In this document: positions 6,253-22,887 of the stretch, one piece after another
Position numbering within the stretch: position 1 is the first letter of the stretch
Layout of the letters: each line of letters starts with the position of its first letter
Assembly: GCA_963816145.1 (NCBI GenBank)
Contig: CAWFJP010000031.1
Span: forward strand, 64,001 to 128,000
From: an uncultured delta proteobacterium
GTDB lineage: Bacteria; Desulfobacterota; Binatia; UBA9968
DNA: 64,000 nt
Reading direction: 5' to 3'
Notes under the pieces: generated by a model
Databases searched by the model: none
What the model saw: the letters and a program-made list of their open reading frames with translations, nothing else
What the model was told of the DNA's origin: nothing
Position numbers and translations under genes: made by a program

Positions 6253-6726
6253 TCATGAGCGCGGAACTTTGCTGCCTTCCATCGGGTAGCGTTTTTCATA
6301 CCAGCCGACGATGCCTTCGTTCAGCACTTTCATATTGCGAAAACCGTTTTCGTAAAGAATGCCATAGGCCAGACTGGCCAGGTGATGGGGGCATGCTCAA
6401 TAGAGTACCACCGGTCGGTCGCGCGGAATGCTCTTTAGATACTCTTTGAACTCCCCAAGCGGCGCCGACTGGGCGCCCAAAATATGCACCTCGTCGAACT
6501 CCTCTTTGGTTCGGACATCAATCAACATCGGCTTGGCGCCGGTTTTGAGTTCGTCGACGAGTTGATCGATGCCGATAAACTCGGGTGTGACATCCGGCGG
6601 TAGAGTTTGTTGGGCAAATTCCGGATACTTCGAGGGATCGGCATGGGCGCCGGGCACGGTGATGAGGCTTAGACCGAGCGCAAGTCCAGCGGCAGTCAGA
6701 TACAGGTTCGATCGGATTCGCTTCAT
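6253..6726 (-). CDS. Exported rhodanese-domain selenoprotein, 157 aa with UGA read as Sec
   Basis: ORF track stops at PVVLY-UGA (6397-6399). The frame continues as ACPHHLASLAYGILYENGFRNMKVLNEGIVGWYEKRYPMEGSKVPRS, which completes the rhodanese fold. UGA sits at the catalytic Cys position; signal peptide present. Confidence 0.88.
6362..6388 (-). promoter_or_regulatory. Candidate bacterial SECIS element
   Basis: mRNA CCAU-CACCU-GGCCA-GUC-UGGCC-U-AUGG; the G-initiated apical loop begins 22 nt after the UGA. Confidence 0.65.
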
Positions 6727-7595
6727 GGGTTTGCCCCCGGAGCGGTATATTTAGTCAGCTGTGCCAGCGTATCCAAGGATTGGACCCCGGTGGTGCGCTG
6801 TCCGTTAATAATCCAGGTCGGATAACTTTGGATATCCTTATCCTTGCAGACCGCCGCTTGTGGCGCTTGCGGGCCGCCGGGGCTGCATTCGACATAAGGG
6901 AGCCGTTTCACCGAACTGCCGAATAGTTTCTTTTGTTCCTGGCAATGCGGACACCATGACGCGCCGTAAAACTTCGCGTCGGACTTTGCCAGATGTTCGG
7001 CTAGCCCTTTGACCCATGGATCTTCCGGGCCGGGCGCGTCGCCCCAGTAGCCGGCGAAATAGAGATGGAGCGCGACGACGATCGCGGCACCGACCCCGGC
7101 GCTCTTGCCCAACCAGGGGCCCCAGGAAAAGTTCGGCAAGTTCGCCGGCTTTTGGAAGGTGGTCATGATAAAGATGACCGCCATGATGCCGAGGGAAGTG
7201 AGGCAGTAGGGACAGGTGGCCTTCAGATCGAAAATTGCCATAGAAGTCAGATATAGACTAAACAGCAAACCGAAGAGCGAGATCACCCAAGCCCAGCGCC
7301 ATTGATTGTCAGCGTAGCGGTTCCACGACACCGCAGCGAGCACCCCGTAGGTTAAAAATCCCCAGAAAGAAGTCGGCATGCCGAACAATGTCGACCATTT
7401 GCTGTTCAACACGACATCACAGCCGCTGCCCGCGACACAAAAGGCGACCAGTTTTTCCGCCCAGGCGGTGTAGGTGAGATAAGCCGACAAGATCATGCCC
7501 AGCGTTGACAGGGCAAAGAGCGGCCAGTTGGGTCCATCGCGCAAGAGCGCTTTTGCCGGTTGCTTACCTTTGGGGTTTTTCTTGTCGCTAGCCAT
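6723..7595 (-). CDS. Vitamin K epoxide reductase (VKOR)-thioredoxin fusion, disulfide bond formation
   Basis: C..GSGCDVVLNSKWS loop, CPYC in the TM domain, C-terminal WCPHC...YVEC...YPTW. Confidence 0.93.
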   Translation of the reverse strand: MASDKKNPKGKQPAKALLRDGPNWPLFALSTLGMILSAYLTYTAWAEKLVAFCVAGSGCDVVLNSKWSTLFGMPTSFWGFLTYGVLAAVSWNRYADNQWRWAWVISLFGLLFSLYLTSMAIFDLKATCPYCLTSLGIMAVIFIMTTFQKPANLPNFSWGPWLGKSAGVGAAIVVALHLYFAGYWGDAPGPEDPWVKGLAEHLAKSDAKFYGASWCPHCQEQKKLFGSSVKRLPYVECSPGGPQAPQAAVCKDKDIQSYPTWIINGQRTTGVQSLDTLAQLTKYTAPGANP

Positions 7596-7598
7596 CGA

Positions 7599-8243
7599 TC
7601 ATCCTTTCAACAAGGTTTCTACGTCGTTTCTGAGCCGCGCCAGACTATCCATCGCGCGGCTATCGTAGTAACCGCGGATTTGCGCCTGCGGATCGATCAA
7701 GACAAAGCGCGGGCTGTGCGGAATCATGCCGTTACCTTCGAGGCTGTCGGGAAGCGTTGCGACGCTCAAGTGAAAGCCGTCGCGGACAAGCTTAATCACC
7801 TGATCTCGCTGTCCGGTGAGAAAGTACCAGCGTTGTCGATCGGCTTCATGTTTGTCGGCGTAGGCGCTTAGCACCTGCGGCGTGTCCCGCTCCGGATCGA
7901 CGCTGATGGAGACGAATTGGACGTTTGCTTTTGACGCGAACTCTTTTTGCAGCTTGGCCATGGTTGCTGTCTGCAACGGACAAGTGTCGGTGCAAGTGGT
8001 GTAAATAAAGTCAGCGATCCAAATCTTGCCGCGCAGTTCCGTCATGGCGACGTCTTTGCCGCTGCGTTCGGTGAGTGTGAAGTCCGGCACCGTGCCATAT
8101 TGCTTCAACCCGTCGTCGTCGGCGCGATCCGCCAAAACGACGCGCGGCGGCGGCCCGAGTTTCAGCCACAACACCGTGCCGAGGATCACGCCCAAGCCGA
8201 TTACGGCAGCACCTAGCAAGAAGAACCGTTTTGCGTCGTTCAT
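7599..8243 (-). CDS. SCO/SenC family metal chaperone
   Basis: FIYTTCTDTCP, SVDPERDT, conserved His (IPHS), N-terminal TM. Confidence 0.93.
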   Translation of the reverse strand: MNDAKRFFLLGAAVIGLGVILGTVLWLKLGPPPRVVLADRADDDGLKQYGTVPDFTLTERSGKDVAMTELRGKIWIADFIYTTCTDTCPLQTATMAKLQKEFASKANVQFVSISVDPERDTPQVLSAYADKHEADRQRWYFLTGQRDQVIKLVRDGFHLSVATLPDSLEGNGMIPHSPRFVLIDPQAQIRGYYDSRAMDSLARLRNDVETLLKG

Positions 8244-8402
8244 ATGGGAAAAAAGGTATCGACAATCGATTTTATCGGTTAAATGGCCATTTGTGTAGAG
8301 CGGTGTGGGAAAACGTGACTAACTTCGGTTGCCAATAATGATTCTTCGCCAGTCCGAGAGTGGATCAGCCTTATTCTATCCGCACGTCAGAATTCACCTC
8401 GC

Positions 8403-8963
8403 CTATCCCGGCGGAATCTTCTCGATCAGTTTTCCTTTCATGAAAAGCTCGTAGCCTCTTAGCGACAGCTCATAAGCGCGCGGCGAGTGGTCGGACATGT
8501 CGGAGACGACCAGGTCTAAAATTAGCAGCGTTTCGCTATTAGGCTGGATGTCGTAGTTTAGTTTGAACCGGCCGATGGTGTTTTTTACCGGGGTCTTGCG
8601 TTGGGCTTTCTTCAATATAGCGGTGATGCTTTTAATTTTTAAATGAAATGCGTCGAAGGCGCCGGCATCGATGGGCGCACGGAACACTTGGGCGGAGTTT
8701 TTGCCGAGATACTTGGTCAGATCGATCGGCTCCGAAGTGACAGCGAGATCTTTCCAGCCGGTCTGCCAGAACTTCAGGCCCGGTTTGGGGCTGACTGATA
8801 TTTTATCGATGGCGACGATGACTTTGTCAAAATCGCCGATGGCATCGCGGTGGTCTTTGATCCGGATTTCCAGGATGCCTTGTCCACGCTCGGCAGCTTG
8901 CGCGTGAATCGATGCGCCGAAGATCAACAGCGCTATGATTAGGATTTTTCGGATTCGAGCCAT
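8403..8963 (-). CDS. Exported DUF4382-like protein
   Basis: Signal peptide; beta-rich IRIKD...VIVAIDKI...IDLT pattern. Confidence 0.6.
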   Translation of the reverse strand: MARIRKILIIALLIFGASIHAQAAERGQGILEIRIKDHRDAIGDFDKVIVAIDKISVSPKPGLKFWQTGWKDLAVTSEPIDLTKYLGKNSAQVFRAPIDAGAFDAFHLKIKSITAILKKAQRKTPVKNTIGRFKLNYDIQPNSETLLILDLVVSDMSDHSPRAYELSLRGYELFMKGKLIEKIPPG

Positions 8964-21755: not shown

Positions 21756-21775
21756 ATAAATCTCTTTGGAATTTC

Positions 21776-21802
21776 GTAACACAAATCGTAAATATGTGTC
21801 AA
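21776..21802. promoter_or_regulatory. Candidate NikR operator overlapping the nikR -35 element
   Basis: GTAACAC-N13-GTGTCAA; the right arm contains TTGACA on the minus strand. Confidence 0.6.
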
Positions 21803-21862
21803 CTGCGACTCCGAATTCGGTCAGTTGGCCGCACTCCTTTGCTATGCTAGATCTATAGTGAC

Positions 21863-22291
21863 GTGACGCTATTTGGCACTCTAGCAACTTCACTCCTATT
21901 TGCCTTTGTGGCCGGCTGTGGCCGCAACGAACGTATGGACCTGATCTATGGGCAAAGATGCGCGAATTGCCATGGCCCGGGCGGCCGCGGCGATGGGACA
22001 ATCGCCGCATCATTGCAAACGCCACCGCCAGACTTTCGTGATACGGTTCAGCGCAAAAGCAACAGTCAAATTAGAAGAGTCATCGCCGAAGGTAAGGGCG
22101 CTATGCCGGCGTTCGATCCCGCGCTACGGCCTTCTGAAATTAACGATATGTTGCAGATGGTTCGCTTCTTGAGCCGGGAAGGGCGCGATCTCGCTTGGTG
22201 GGAGAAGTACGATACCTTGATCGCGGCGCATTGCAGTATTCCGTGGGAAGCGGCGTTGGGGCTCGACGATGCGCCGGAGAAAAAACCGTGA
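21863..22291 (+). CDS. Monoheme cytochrome c lipoprotein
   Basis: FVAGC lipobox, CANCH, GxGDG, AMPAF distal Met. Confidence 0.9.
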   Translation: MTLFGTLATSLLFAFVAGCGRNERMDLIYGQRCANCHGPGGRGDGTIAASLQTPPPDFRDTVQRKSNSQIRRVIAEGKGAMPAFDPALRPSEINDMLQMVRFLSREGRDLAWWEKYDTLIAAHCSIPWEAALGLDDAPEKKP

Positions 22292-22887
22292 AATTAAGCA
22301 TAACTTATTGCCTTGTCGTCTTAGCGCTTGCGGCTAATTCCGTTGGCAATCAAGCAGTGGCGCATGAAGTTCAGCAAAAAACTGTTGAACGTCGTGCGGT
22401 GGTGATCCCAATTAATGATTTTACTCTGGTCGATCAGAATTCGCGAGAGTTTCAATTTTCTAATTTGACGGGGCGCGTGGTGGTCGTGGCGTTCACTTAC
22501 ACCACATGCCCGGATGTTTGTCCGTTGCTCACGGCAGCGCTGCGCCAGGTGCAAGTTGGCTTGACTCCGGATGAACGTAAGAAGGTTTTTTTGCTTTCTA
22601 TCACCACCGATCCTGAGATCGACTCGCCGAAGGTTCTTCTCGGTTACGGCAAACGCTACGGCGCTGATTCCTCCAATTGGTCTTTTCTTACCGGCGATCA
22701 AGCGGCGTTGCAAAAAGTCTGGAAAAACTTTGGCGTTGGCGTAAAACGCCAGGCACGGGGTTTGGTGGATCATACGCCGCTGACGGCGGTGGTCGATCGT
22801 CACGGTAAAATGCGCGTGGCGTATGTTGGCCCGGCGCCCGATGCGAAACTGGTTTTGCGGGATGTTCGTGGTTTACTGGCCCAATGA
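22288..22887 (+). CDS. SCO/SenC family metal chaperone
   Basis: FTYTTCPDVCP, TTDPEID, VDHT; GTG start overlaps the cytochrome stop. Confidence 0.92.
   Translation: MKLSITYCLVVLALAANSVGNQAVAHEVQQKTVERRAVVIPINDFTLVDQNSREFQFSNLTGRVVVVAFTYTTCPDVCPLLTAALRQVQVGLTPDERKKVFLLSITTDPEIDSPKVLLGYGKRYGADSSNWSFLTGDQAALQKVWKNFGVGVKRQARGLVDHTPLTAVVDRHGKMRVAYVGPAPDAKLVLRDVRGLLAQ

Follow-up and report, generated by a model that had tools for sequence, protein, structure and literature searches.

The DNA considered here, a stretch of 64,000 nucleotides that we call the window (G000:C31:64001-128000), belongs to a genome of 7.8 Mb in 31 contigs from an uncultured bacterium of the Candidatus Binatia. On its minus strand 19 genes in a row (6253-21752) share one orientation, from nikR, which encodes a regulator of the NikR type, to the gene of a secreted rhodanese that contains selenocysteine (Sec); a divergent pair beside nikR encodes a cytochrome c and a SCO protein (Table 1). 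We propose that this locus is a composite island: an uptake unit, repressed by NikR and probably devoted to nickel, would be joined to a periplasmic maturation unit, probably for copper, which would be gated by a leader peptide of its own. We hold this combined reading with about as much belief as doubt.

Genes were called from open reading frames (ORFs) with the aid of Pfam and NCBIfam. A preliminary description of the window had listed the 19 co-oriented genes and the divergent pair. All of them are present, every listed item was confirmed, and nikR indeed stands at the head of the string, together with predicted operators. That many of the genes overlap or abut is equally correct; by coordinates this applies to nine pairs, i.e., ExbB/ExbD, ExbD/TonB, propeller/TlpA (4 nt), TlpA/paralog 3, paralog 2/paralog 1 and, in the distal part, paralog 1/SCO_b, SCO_b/DUF4382, SCO_a/VKOR and VKOR/rhodanese. 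SCO_a is preceded by a gap of 159 nt with a promoter-like site at 8297-8269.

Table 1. Genes and other features of the locus (positions within the window)
Feature	Position	Strand	Assignment and remarks
nikR	21339-21752	-	RHH_1 29.9 bits and NikR_C 93.8 bits, both above cut-offs
NikR operator 1 (predicted)	21776-21802		divergent region nikR/cytochrome c-SCO; matrix score 27.4
NikR operator 2 (predicted)	21296-21322		directly upstream of the receptor gene; matrix score 34.9, best of the genome
TonB-dependent receptor	19233-21280	-	plug and barrel; ORF stops at 19367, tail in another frame
MFS transporter	17866-19134	-	MFS_1 184.8 bits
exbB	17231-17833	-	Pfam MotA_ExbB
exbD	16818-17231	-	Pfam ExbD
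tonB	16002-16821	-	Pfam TonB_C; one frameshift
orf159	15460-15939	-	secreted Ig-like protein; probable true start 15873
orf131	15004-15399	-	C-terminus ...SQRAPPLI
Stem-loop	14932-14961	-	within the 117 nt that separate orf131 from the propeller gene
BNR propeller	13561-14886	-	Pfam BNR_2 and BNR_4; GLCECCKL and SCPH motifs
TlpA-like redoxin	12995-13564	-	AhpC-TSA 80.3 bits, Redoxin 64.9 bits; WCDPC
Cox11-like paralog 3	12052-13011	-	CtaG_Cox11 16.5 bits (under the cut-off of 25)
S-adenosylmethionine (SAM) methyltransferase	11383-12003	-	between Cox11-like paralogs 3 and 2
Cox11-like paralog 2	10421-11338	-	CtaG_Cox11 28.0 bits (cut-off 25)
Cox11-like paralog 1	9537-10424	-	CtaG_Cox11 41.5 bits (cut-off 25)
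SCO_b	8939-9559	-	SCO1-SenC 104.2 bits; overlaps paralog 1 and DUF4382
DUF4382 protein	8403-8963	-	PF14321 39.8 bits
SCO_a	7599-8243	-	SCO1-SenC 106.2 bits
VKOR-thioredoxin fusion	6723-7595	-	VKOR 90.3 bits over residues 24-146; C-terminal WCPHC
Secreted rhodanese-like selenoprotein	6253-6726	-	in-frame TGA at codon 110 (6397-6399)
Cytochrome c	21863-22291	+	divergent from nikR; Cytochrome_CBB3 42.6 bits
Third SCO (SCO_c)	22195-22887	+	SCO1-SenC 90.3 bits

The relatives used for comparison are public metagenome-assembled genomes (MAGs) that carry the label Candidatus Binatia or uncultured delta proteobacterium, and the survey of related genomes comprised 41 genomes of the order. The gene order is kept in 13 of 14 relative regions; the exception, L022, ends at a contig end. 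It reads cytochrome c/SCO, nikR, receptor, major facilitator superfamily (MFS) transporter, tonB, orf159, orf131, propeller and TlpA, and continues with the Cox11-like copies and the methyltransferase, SCO, DUF4382, SCO, VKOR-thioredoxin, rhodanese and queC. A search with an alignment of the paralogs revealed 35 public loci; in 27 of them a Cox11-like gene lies beside a SCO gene, and 25 contain DUF4382 too. With paralog 2 as query, the Cox11-like family was found in 34 of the 41 genomes, mostly as two or three tandem copies. The cytochrome c-SCO pair is conserved either beside nikR or beside the chaperone block. That the gene set stays together in relatives is borne out by the 14 regions and the 35-locus survey, and its reading as a conserved envelope metal-handling locus is supported.

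The set is, however, not kept as one piece throughout. In the family f2, nikR is followed by an importer of the ZnuA/ABC/ABC-3 kind and then by Cox11-like, DUF4382, SCO and VKOR genes; the ZnuA-type proteins of f2 and of L049 scored under every curated cut-off. In the family f3 a Cox11-like-DUF4382 fusion precedes SCO, VKOR and rhodanese; NikR was not found in any of the 11 f3 genomes, seven of which have the core. Genomes of the same genus that lack the nikR-receptor-MFS part also exist, e.g., G014 (98% complete) with locus L021. Taken together, 16 of the 34 genomes that bear Cox11-like genes have the core without a detected NikR (7 of f3 and 9 of the same genus), and the reverse, NikR without a Cox11-like gene, is seen in G024, G031 and G033. 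In variant loci orf131 and the Cox11-like genes are separated by DUF4198, CopC and a CopD that is fused to the orf159 domain. L049, from a MAG labelled Acidiferrales, combines in one direction nikR, a pair of MFS genes, a channel of the outer membrane, ZnuABC, an orf131-like ORF ending on RAPP, propeller, TlpA, orf159, Cox11-like, SCO, VKOR and Sec-rhodanese.

NikR boxes and a probable leader peptide

The window's nikR is the single NikR gene of the genome (one match). Its product resembles the Pyrococcus protein (2bj1, E 5.7e-35), keeps the QH, LH(I/V)H and HNCLE stretches and, as judged from them, is a NikR that retains the His3Cys nickel site. In NikR proteins these conserved stretches carry the His3Cys ligands, and nickel is the sole metal sensed, as section 3.2.8 of PMC11672702 has it. 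The most likely start of nikR is 21752 (MHHLSRF...); the start of the longest ORF, 22025, would lead to an overlap with the cytochrome c gene.

A 7-mer that we take to be a NikR half-site occurs four times in the 64-kb window, twice in rRNA and twice just upstream of nikR and the receptor gene. From orthologous flanks of 10 loci (18 places) a palindrome of 27 bp could be derived, with the consensus GTAACACGAA-N7-TTCGTGTTAC. A position weight matrix (PWM) that includes the spacer was trained on these 18 sites. In the entire genome the two operators of Table 1 are the only strong sites. The next score is 21.2 (C29:126344); this site lies inside a dehydrogenase ORF and was rejected as a NikR box. 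The reversed genome, used as a control, gave 1 match of at least 20. Specificity is achieved only with the spacer-inclusive PWM: the plain IUPAC pattern is not enriched, with 23 forward and 22 reverse matches in the genome versus 75 and 68 in the backwards-read control, and it occurs 17 times in the window versus 9.55 expected.

The left half of operator 1 overlaps a TTGACA hexamer, and orthologous sites are found in 8 other loci. Operator 2 overlaps promoter-like hexamers, the promoter-like sites being 21322-21293 and 21305-21276, which is a classical arrangement for repression. Over 807 kb of related loci, 19 of 19 sites that score at least 15 adjoin nikR; two of them were outside the training set, L049:2052, before an MFS ortholog, and L031:4167. 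The boxes front nikR itself and importer genes only, be it a TonB-dependent receptor, an MFS transporter or a ZnuA-type/ZnuABC system. No box was detected before orf159, orf131, propeller, Cox11-like or SCO genes, either in the window or in the 807 kb, and the genome-wide PWM scan did not show any near the urease operon. Since all boxes lie at nikR or the adjacent importer, NikR appears to be a local regulator here. Its predicted direct targets are its own gene, whichever importer follows and possibly the divergent cytochrome c-SCO pair. By analogy with the NikR family, nickel would be the effector and repression the direction.

The second regulatory element is orf131. Among 16 aligned orthologs it shows an N-terminal hydrophobic segment, an invariant PHRVHHF, a His-rich stretch and one invariant Cys, C78; H32, H35 and H36 are also invariant. 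R126, A127 and P129 are found in 16 of 16 sequences and P128 in at least 90%, and this RAPP motif ends 2 residues before the stop. C78 lies 47 residues before RAPP, and in some subfamilies another Cys follows 11 residues after it. Weak matches to the Pfam family DUF2946 (PF11162) were obtained with 11 of the 16 orthologs at E<=1, the best being 1.9e-5. In the gap behind orf131 the stem-loop is built from an inverted repeat of 15 + 15 nt, 93% complementary, and the region folds with a z of -2.45. In 15 of 20 regions downstream of RAPP ORFs a hairpin surpasses at least 95% of 40 shuffles in stability, although the sequences differ. Riboswitches or other Rfam families were not found in the string.

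A precedent is CruR of Bordetella pertussis. It is a DUF2946 upstream ORF the nascent chain of which stalls at RAPP; copper, bound via a CXXC 45 residues before RAPP, leads to release, and Rho termination before the gene of a TonB receptor is thereby controlled, as described in PMC9426467. RAPP and RGPP leaders further occur upstream of genes for TonB receptors, YcnI, PCuAC, PepSY and DsbA/thioredoxin proteins, according to PMC12992588. Because of its RAPP end, the weak DUF2946 matches of its orthologs, the spacing of the Cys and the downstream hairpins, we read orf131 as a gate of this kind: it is probably a CruR-like, DUF2946-related leader of the downstream genes, for which stalling and metal-dependent release are predicted. 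More small ORFs that end on RAPP are seen in L016:14216-14800(-), L025:6718-7050(-), L027:5603-5893(-) and L026:11692-12018(+); of these, one precedes a second, distant TonB-receptor-like gene and another precedes orf159. These genomes seem to make repeated use of RAPP leader peptides.

The gene in front of orf131, orf159, encodes a secreted Ig-like domain with weak BiPBP_C/Big_7 matches. H26, H83, H85, H111, H122, D89, E91, D121 and E125 are invariant in its alignment, and in 7 loci CopD carries this domain at its C-terminus. It has no sequence relative in the PDB, and the Atlas yielded only clusters of hypothetical proteins from Binatota and Nitrospirota. Its longest ORF, from 15939, is over-extended; 15873 is the most likely start.

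A single NikR-driven pathway that includes the chaperone genes is not supported in that form: there are no boxes before these genes, the core occurs in 16 genomes without detected NikR, it probably has a leader of its own, related to a copper-responsive one, and CopC and CopD join it in variant loci.

The proposed uptake and maturation proteins

Of the uptake unit, the MFS protein is a candidate inner-membrane importer by family membership, without a specific family assignment in the NCBIfam search. An MFS gene follows a NikR box in L019, L047 and L049; those of L047 and L049 are 58-60% orthologs, that of L019 is a 30% paralog. The matches of the receptor in the PDB are limited to the plug domains of BtuB, Cir and FepA, and its substrate can therefore not be read from it. 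Two genes of the unit appear to be disrupted, which the preliminary description did not mention. The last ~40 residues of the receptor lie in another frame; the frame is lost near 19361-19370, the stop is at 19233-19235 and the tail ends ...ITIHIW. Its orthologs are single ORFs of 681-703 amino acids, the alignment of which reaches window position 19361 only. In tonB the frame shifts near 16297-16309; here the orthologs are single ORFs of 230-274 amino acids that match two frames of the window.

The propeller is probably a lipoprotein. Its AlphaFold2 (AF2) model, with a predicted local distance difference test (pLDDT) of 89.8, is six-bladed and sialidase-like; the best TM score is ~0.6. In 45 sequences, with identities as low as ~24%, C237, C239, C240, C296 and P297 do not vary. 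The family is very large: 7996 relatives at E<=0.001, sialidase-like propellers of ~400 amino acids, extend far beyond the locus. We know of no function for this CxCC...CP family.

The Cox11-like paralogs are 33-34% identical to each other and are the only Cox11-family matches in the genome; in public annotation they figure as cytochrome c oxidase assembly protein or as hypothetical protein. The AF2 model (pLDDT 89.4) consists of a transmembrane helix, an NTF2-like domain and a beta-sandwich. The top PDB fold match of the sandwich is apoCox11 (1so9; E 2.9e-6, TMt 0.66, 111 columns), so at the level of the model a true Cox11 fold is confirmed. The canonical copper(I) motif of Cox11 comprises two Cys (CFCF). 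This motif is not retained: in 37 sequences Y55, D62, H236 and C252 are invariant, the last one within ...VEC-A/G-L..., and C252 and H236 are the only invariant Cys and His of the Cox11 domain. In L023, L024, L028 and L055 the Cox11-like protein is fused to DUF4382, a domain for which the PDB offered no relative.

All three SCO copies have the CxxxC motif and the distal His; without exception, 27 aligned sequences, these three among them, have C79, C83 and H167. They are the only SCO-family genes of the genome; a weak match lies on C12 (111494-111694, minus strand, 22.3 bits). It contains one in-frame TGA and may be a further selenoprotein of the thioredoxin fold. Prediction of complex structures, a follow-up suggested in the preliminary description, was performed with the Cox11-like protein (residues 32-295) and SCO_b (28-206). 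The score was 0.59, as against 0.27 for the highest of 3 controls; at least 92% of the contacts are common to the runs, and the pLDDT of the partner is at least 87. Of 80 solved complexes 58 reach the mark applied, as do 2 of 110 mismatched pairs; only 7 of the 80 solved complexes and both mismatches lie between the mark and 0.60. A complex is weakly supported by this prediction.

The methyltransferase resembles small protein-lysine/RNA methyltransferases (PDB matches 5bxy, 3e-53, and 5jwj, 1.3e-37). It starts with a segment that looks like a signal peptide; an extracytoplasmic SAM enzyme would be odd. In same-genus loci few genes of the string are as well conserved (63-87% identity).

The thiol-redox proteins are a periplasmic thioredoxin fold of the TlpA type, the VKOR-thioredoxin fusion, which shows a weak match to glutaredoxin-like models, and the rhodanese. 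The latter has a signal peptide and, upon read-through translation, the motif LY-U-A-C-P-H-H. Each of the 14 distinct orthologs has its TGA at this codon, and the nucleotides downstream are near-invariant. A hairpin, GGCCA-GUC-UGGCC, lies at ~6367-6379, 17 nt behind the TGA, and its nucleotide sequence hardly varies; the 86-nt fold has shuffle-level stability (z = 0.49). The genome encodes tRNA-Sec and SelA (534 bits). By these features of its sequence the protein is a genuine periplasmic selenoprotein. Against NF041203 it scored 54.8, which is below the cut-off of 115.

The flanks of the locus are made up of unrelated housekeeping genes: queC, DUF58, BatA-like and VWA genes beyond the rhodanese, and those for 5-formyltetrahydrofolate cyclo-ligase, RNase Y, tyrosyl-tRNA synthetase and an rRNA operon beyond the divergent pair. 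The rRNA operon is complete (16S, tRNA-Ile, tRNA-Ala, 23S, 5S) and is located at 28384-33873 (+), 5.5 kb off the locus. Downstream of queC, at 284-5542 (-), a Bat/aerotolerance-like set (DUF58, BatA-like, VWA and GATase1-like) is kept beside queC in same-genus loci. We considered queC as a member of the system and rejected it; it trails the rhodanese in family f1 only. In L049 and L056 a SIS gene takes its place downstream, in L056 directly after VKOR.

One pathway or two, and for which metal

We picture the locus as a trace-metal island of Candidatus Binatia, in which exchangeable modules would be lined up in one direction under two different metal sensors. Nickel-bound NikR would sit on the 27-bp palindromes over its own and the receptor's promoter and shut off the uptake unit, i.e., TonB-dependent receptor, MFS permease and ExbB-ExbD-TonB. 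The second module would begin with the secreted, His-rich orf159 product and the leader peptide. By analogy with CruR, orf131 would stall the ribosome at RAPP. When metal is scarce, the genes that follow would be open, at the level of transcription or translation; with metal bound to orf131, they would be closed via the downstream hairpin or Rho. The maturation set would consist of the Cys-rich propeller lipoprotein, three membrane-anchored proteins of the Cox11 fold, methyltransferase, SCO and DUF4382. The TlpA-type reductase would keep Cys ligands reduced and the VKOR-thioredoxin would act as oxidant, complemented by the secreted selenocysteine rhodanese. The most likely job of the module would be capture of copper, its redox conditioning and its insertion into envelope proteins under copper scarcity, and the targets may include two heme-copper oxidases encoded elsewhere. 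Both units are adjacent and might be transcribed in one read-through transcript; direct control by NikR would be confined to the uptake unit. That copper is the metal of the second unit is suggested by the SCO motifs, the Cox11 fold, TlpA, the CopC/CopD genes of variant loci and the copper-responsive relatives of the leader, as well as by the fact that the genome's only SCO and Cox11-family genes lie here, with two COX1 genes elsewhere.

The window itself, as had been claimed, contains no hydrogenase, urease or heme-copper oxidase gene, and the genome-wide searches agree: COX1 is found on contigs C2 and C29 and urease alpha on C3. In this genome no NiFe-hydrogenase scored above the cut-off and carbon monoxide dehydrogenase was not found. 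The urease operon has ureDEFG and no nickel permease beside it; apart from a weak NicO-family match, the genome yielded neither CbiM nor HupE/UreJ. The NikR unit is therefore a reasonable nickel supply for urease. Among the 21 NikR-bearing genomes of the 41, urease is present in 5, NiFe-hydrogenase in 1 and LarA in 0. Nickel superoxide dismutase was not matched in the 41 genomes, yet control genomes were equally silent, and the search is thus uninformative. Copper membrane monooxygenase was rejected as a target; PmoA was unmatched in the 41 genomes, again with equally silent control genomes. COX1 occurs in 38 and SCO in 39 of the 41.

A number of observations do not fit this composite scheme well. 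On the side of nickel, 15 of the 21 NikR-bearing relatives showed no urease, NiFe-hydrogenase or LarA, i.e., no known major nickel enzyme, which leaves the use of nickel unexplained in them. On the side of copper, the one-Cys/one-His site of the Cox11-like proteins is not the canonical copper site. Moreover, G026, G028 and G030 have COX1 and SCO without a Cox11-like gene, which implies that the core is not needed for oxidases. The leader is a less than perfect CruR: the CXXC is absent from the 16-ortholog alignment with its single invariant Cys, the window's own orf131 has no DUF2946 match, and its His-rich nature would suit Ni(II) as well as copper. The two units may also be less independent than we assume. 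In 13 of the 21 NikR-bearing genomes NikR and the chaperone core are no more than 19 kb apart, behind three importer types, which speaks for a functional tie that goes beyond adjacency. Terminator-like sites in the string amount to 25, versus 24.0 in shuffles; without any excess, one long NikR-dependent transcript is possible. Finally, the frameshifts in tonB and the receptor gene may mean that the uptake unit is decaying here, or they may be an assembly error; an indel error is suspected because several relatives look like long-read assemblies with similarly fragmented genes (e.g., L035).

Could the two units simply be neighbours, a nickel operon beside housekeeping SCO/Cox11 genes for oxidase assembly, held together by inherited synteny? 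The genome has its only SCO and Cox11-family genes here, two COX1 genes exist, COX1 and SCO are nearly ubiquitous in the order, and the modules also occur apart. We nevertheless consider this unlikely. The three genomes with COX1 and no Cox11-like gene argue against it, and so do the many relatives in which COX1 has a weak SCO-like ORF of its own nearby. Constitutive housekeeping is ill-matched with a dedicated RAPP leader and two or three paralogs, and nikR stays adjacent despite the exchange of importers. The weak SCO-like ORFs (E ~1e-12, 280-430 amino acids, at most 3 kb from COX1) are seen in G003, G004, G014, G018, G024 and others, and each looks like a separate, oxidase-linked SCO; no SCO-like match was found beside either COX1 gene of the window's genome.

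The preliminary description had proposed a periplasmic pathway that captures, sorts and loads metal, possibly with copper-chaperone folds repurposed for nickel, or else one for Ni/Cu discrimination. That a metal-handling locus is headed by nikR stands; that folds of the copper type handle nickel is unsupported in the form stated. In its broader version, SCO, Cox11-like, propeller and orf159 proteins would bind and sort periplasmic Ni(II), orf131 would sense it, and the metal would end up in an envelope nickel protein or be handed over to the inner-membrane importer. It is true that nikR heads the chaperone set behind a receptor and MFS transporter (f1), behind ZnuABC (f2) or behind MFS, channel and ZnuABC (L049), that the locus holds the single NikR of the genome and all its strong boxes, that most NikR-bearing relatives (15/21) appear to be without the three nickel enzymes searched for, and that His is abundant in orf159, orf131 and the Cox11-like site. 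DUF4198 of the variant loci is a family that was once annotated as related to nickel/cobalt. The core, however, is present in the 16 genomes without detected NikR, among them 7 of the 11 f3 genomes; the chaperone genes have no NikR box, the SCO sites are of the canonical copper type, CopC and CopD stand behind the same leader in variant loci, and relatives of this leader act on copper. A nickel pathway throughout is rated as rather improbable.

The boldest form of the nickel pathway is still harder to believe. It would be a route for nickel, or for sorting nickel from copper, via Cox11-fold, SCO-fold and His-rich Ig-like proteins, with thiol/selenol-aided loading by TlpA, VKOR-thioredoxin and Sec-rhodanese into an envelope nickel protein; the best candidate for the latter would be the CxCC...CPH propeller lipoprotein. 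If true, it would explain the 15 of 21 genomes without urease, NiFe-hydrogenase or LarA and why nikR stays while the importer type changes. Least probable of all is that everything serves copper, with receptor and MFS transporter importing a copper complex in OprC/CcoA-like roles and a NikR-family protein recruited for the purpose: copper-type families flank nikR on both sides (cytochrome c-SCO and the chaperone block), RAPP leaders are known before copper-regulated TonB receptors (PMC9426467, PMC12992588), and the urease operon lacks a NikR box, but the His3Cys stretches of NikR are intact in a family reported as nickel-only (PMC11672702, in the section cited), no copper receptor is among the PDB matches of the receptor, which are plug domains of BtuB, Cir and FepA only, and the MFS protein has no specific family assignment.

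Binatia are abundant, uncultured soil bacteria, the metal biology of which is undescribed. The locus offers a minimal NikR regulon together with its operator. The divergent, His-rich RAPP leader inside a long string may extend the mechanism to another ligand set, and the Cox11 fold with a changed site, fused to DUF4382 in some lineages, could provide a first functional context for DUF4382. Also on offer are a large propeller family with an invariant CxCC...CP and a secreted Sec-rhodanese beside a VKOR-thioredoxin. Should nickel pass through these proteins after all, this would be the first periplasmic nickel chaperone system.

Comparison with known systems

The preliminary description had not recognised the locus as a described system, and the literature searched did not yield an account of it either. 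In the main text of the Binatota genome paper, nickel, NikR, Cox11, TonB and selenocysteine each occur 0 times; the supplementary lists of RAPP ORFs (PMC12992588, PMC9426467) may include relatives of orf131.

Its parts can be compared with what is known one by one. In Helicobacter pylori, NikR represses nickel uptake, including TonB-dependent receptors with ExbB-ExbD-TonB. The operator of E. coli NikR is GTATGA-N16-TCATAC. The nikABCDE system of E. coli is likewise a NikR-controlled route of nickel uptake, as PMC11672702 states. With such systems the window shares a ribbon-helix-helix protein with NikR_C and the His3Cys stretches, boxes over its own and importer promoters and an outer-membrane receptor with its own Ton system. 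In contrast to E. coli, the operator sequence is different; the inner-membrane partner is an MFS transporter, or of the ZnuABC type in family f2; 13 copper-chaperone-like or thiol-redox genes trail in the same direction, and most relatives lack the usual nickel enzymes.

Like the CruR/RAPP leaders, orf131 is a small peptide, exported or in the membrane, in which RAPP is 2-3 residues away from the stop and a conserved Cys precedes RAPP by ~45-47 residues; in both cases the gap that leads to the regulated genes is structured, and these genes encode metal and thiol-redox proteins. Unlike CruR, it has one invariant Cys, the added PHRVHHF and His-rich stretch and weak Pfam matches only; it lies within a long gene string, not at the head, and precedes the propeller/TlpA/Cox11-like block or DUF4198-CopCD instead of a TonB receptor. 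Units for copper import of the CopC-CopD (YcnJ) type are similar insofar as variant loci carry CopC/CopD behind the same leader and orf159 corresponds to the domain fused to CopD; the window, however, has neither CopC nor CopD, just the free orf159 domain.

In proteobacteria such as Bradyrhizobium and Rhodobacter, SCO, TlpA, Cox11 and also PCuAC form a network of copper chaperones for the assembly of heme-copper oxidases. The SCO proteins with CxxxC...H, a TlpA-type reductase and a membrane-anchored Cox11 fold, all facing the periplasm, are shared with it. The Cox11-like proteins of the window differ from the Cox11 of the network by the extra NTF2-like domain and by one Cys with a new His; three paralogs and three SCOs lie away from oxidase genes and are joined by DUF4382, the CxCC propeller, a methyltransferase, VKOR-thioredoxin and a selenoprotein. 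The latter, in turn, resembles the rhodanese selenoproteins of NF041203 (LYCAU type) in its rhodanese fold and in having Sec in the active-site loop beside a Cys; it deviates by the order U-A-C instead of C-A-U, by its signal peptide and by adjoining the VKOR-thioredoxin. The parts, in short, are of known kinds; what appears new is the way they are combined, along with variations on these kinds in the site of the Cox11 fold, in the His-rich RAPP leader inside the string and in the secreted rhodanese with U-x-C.

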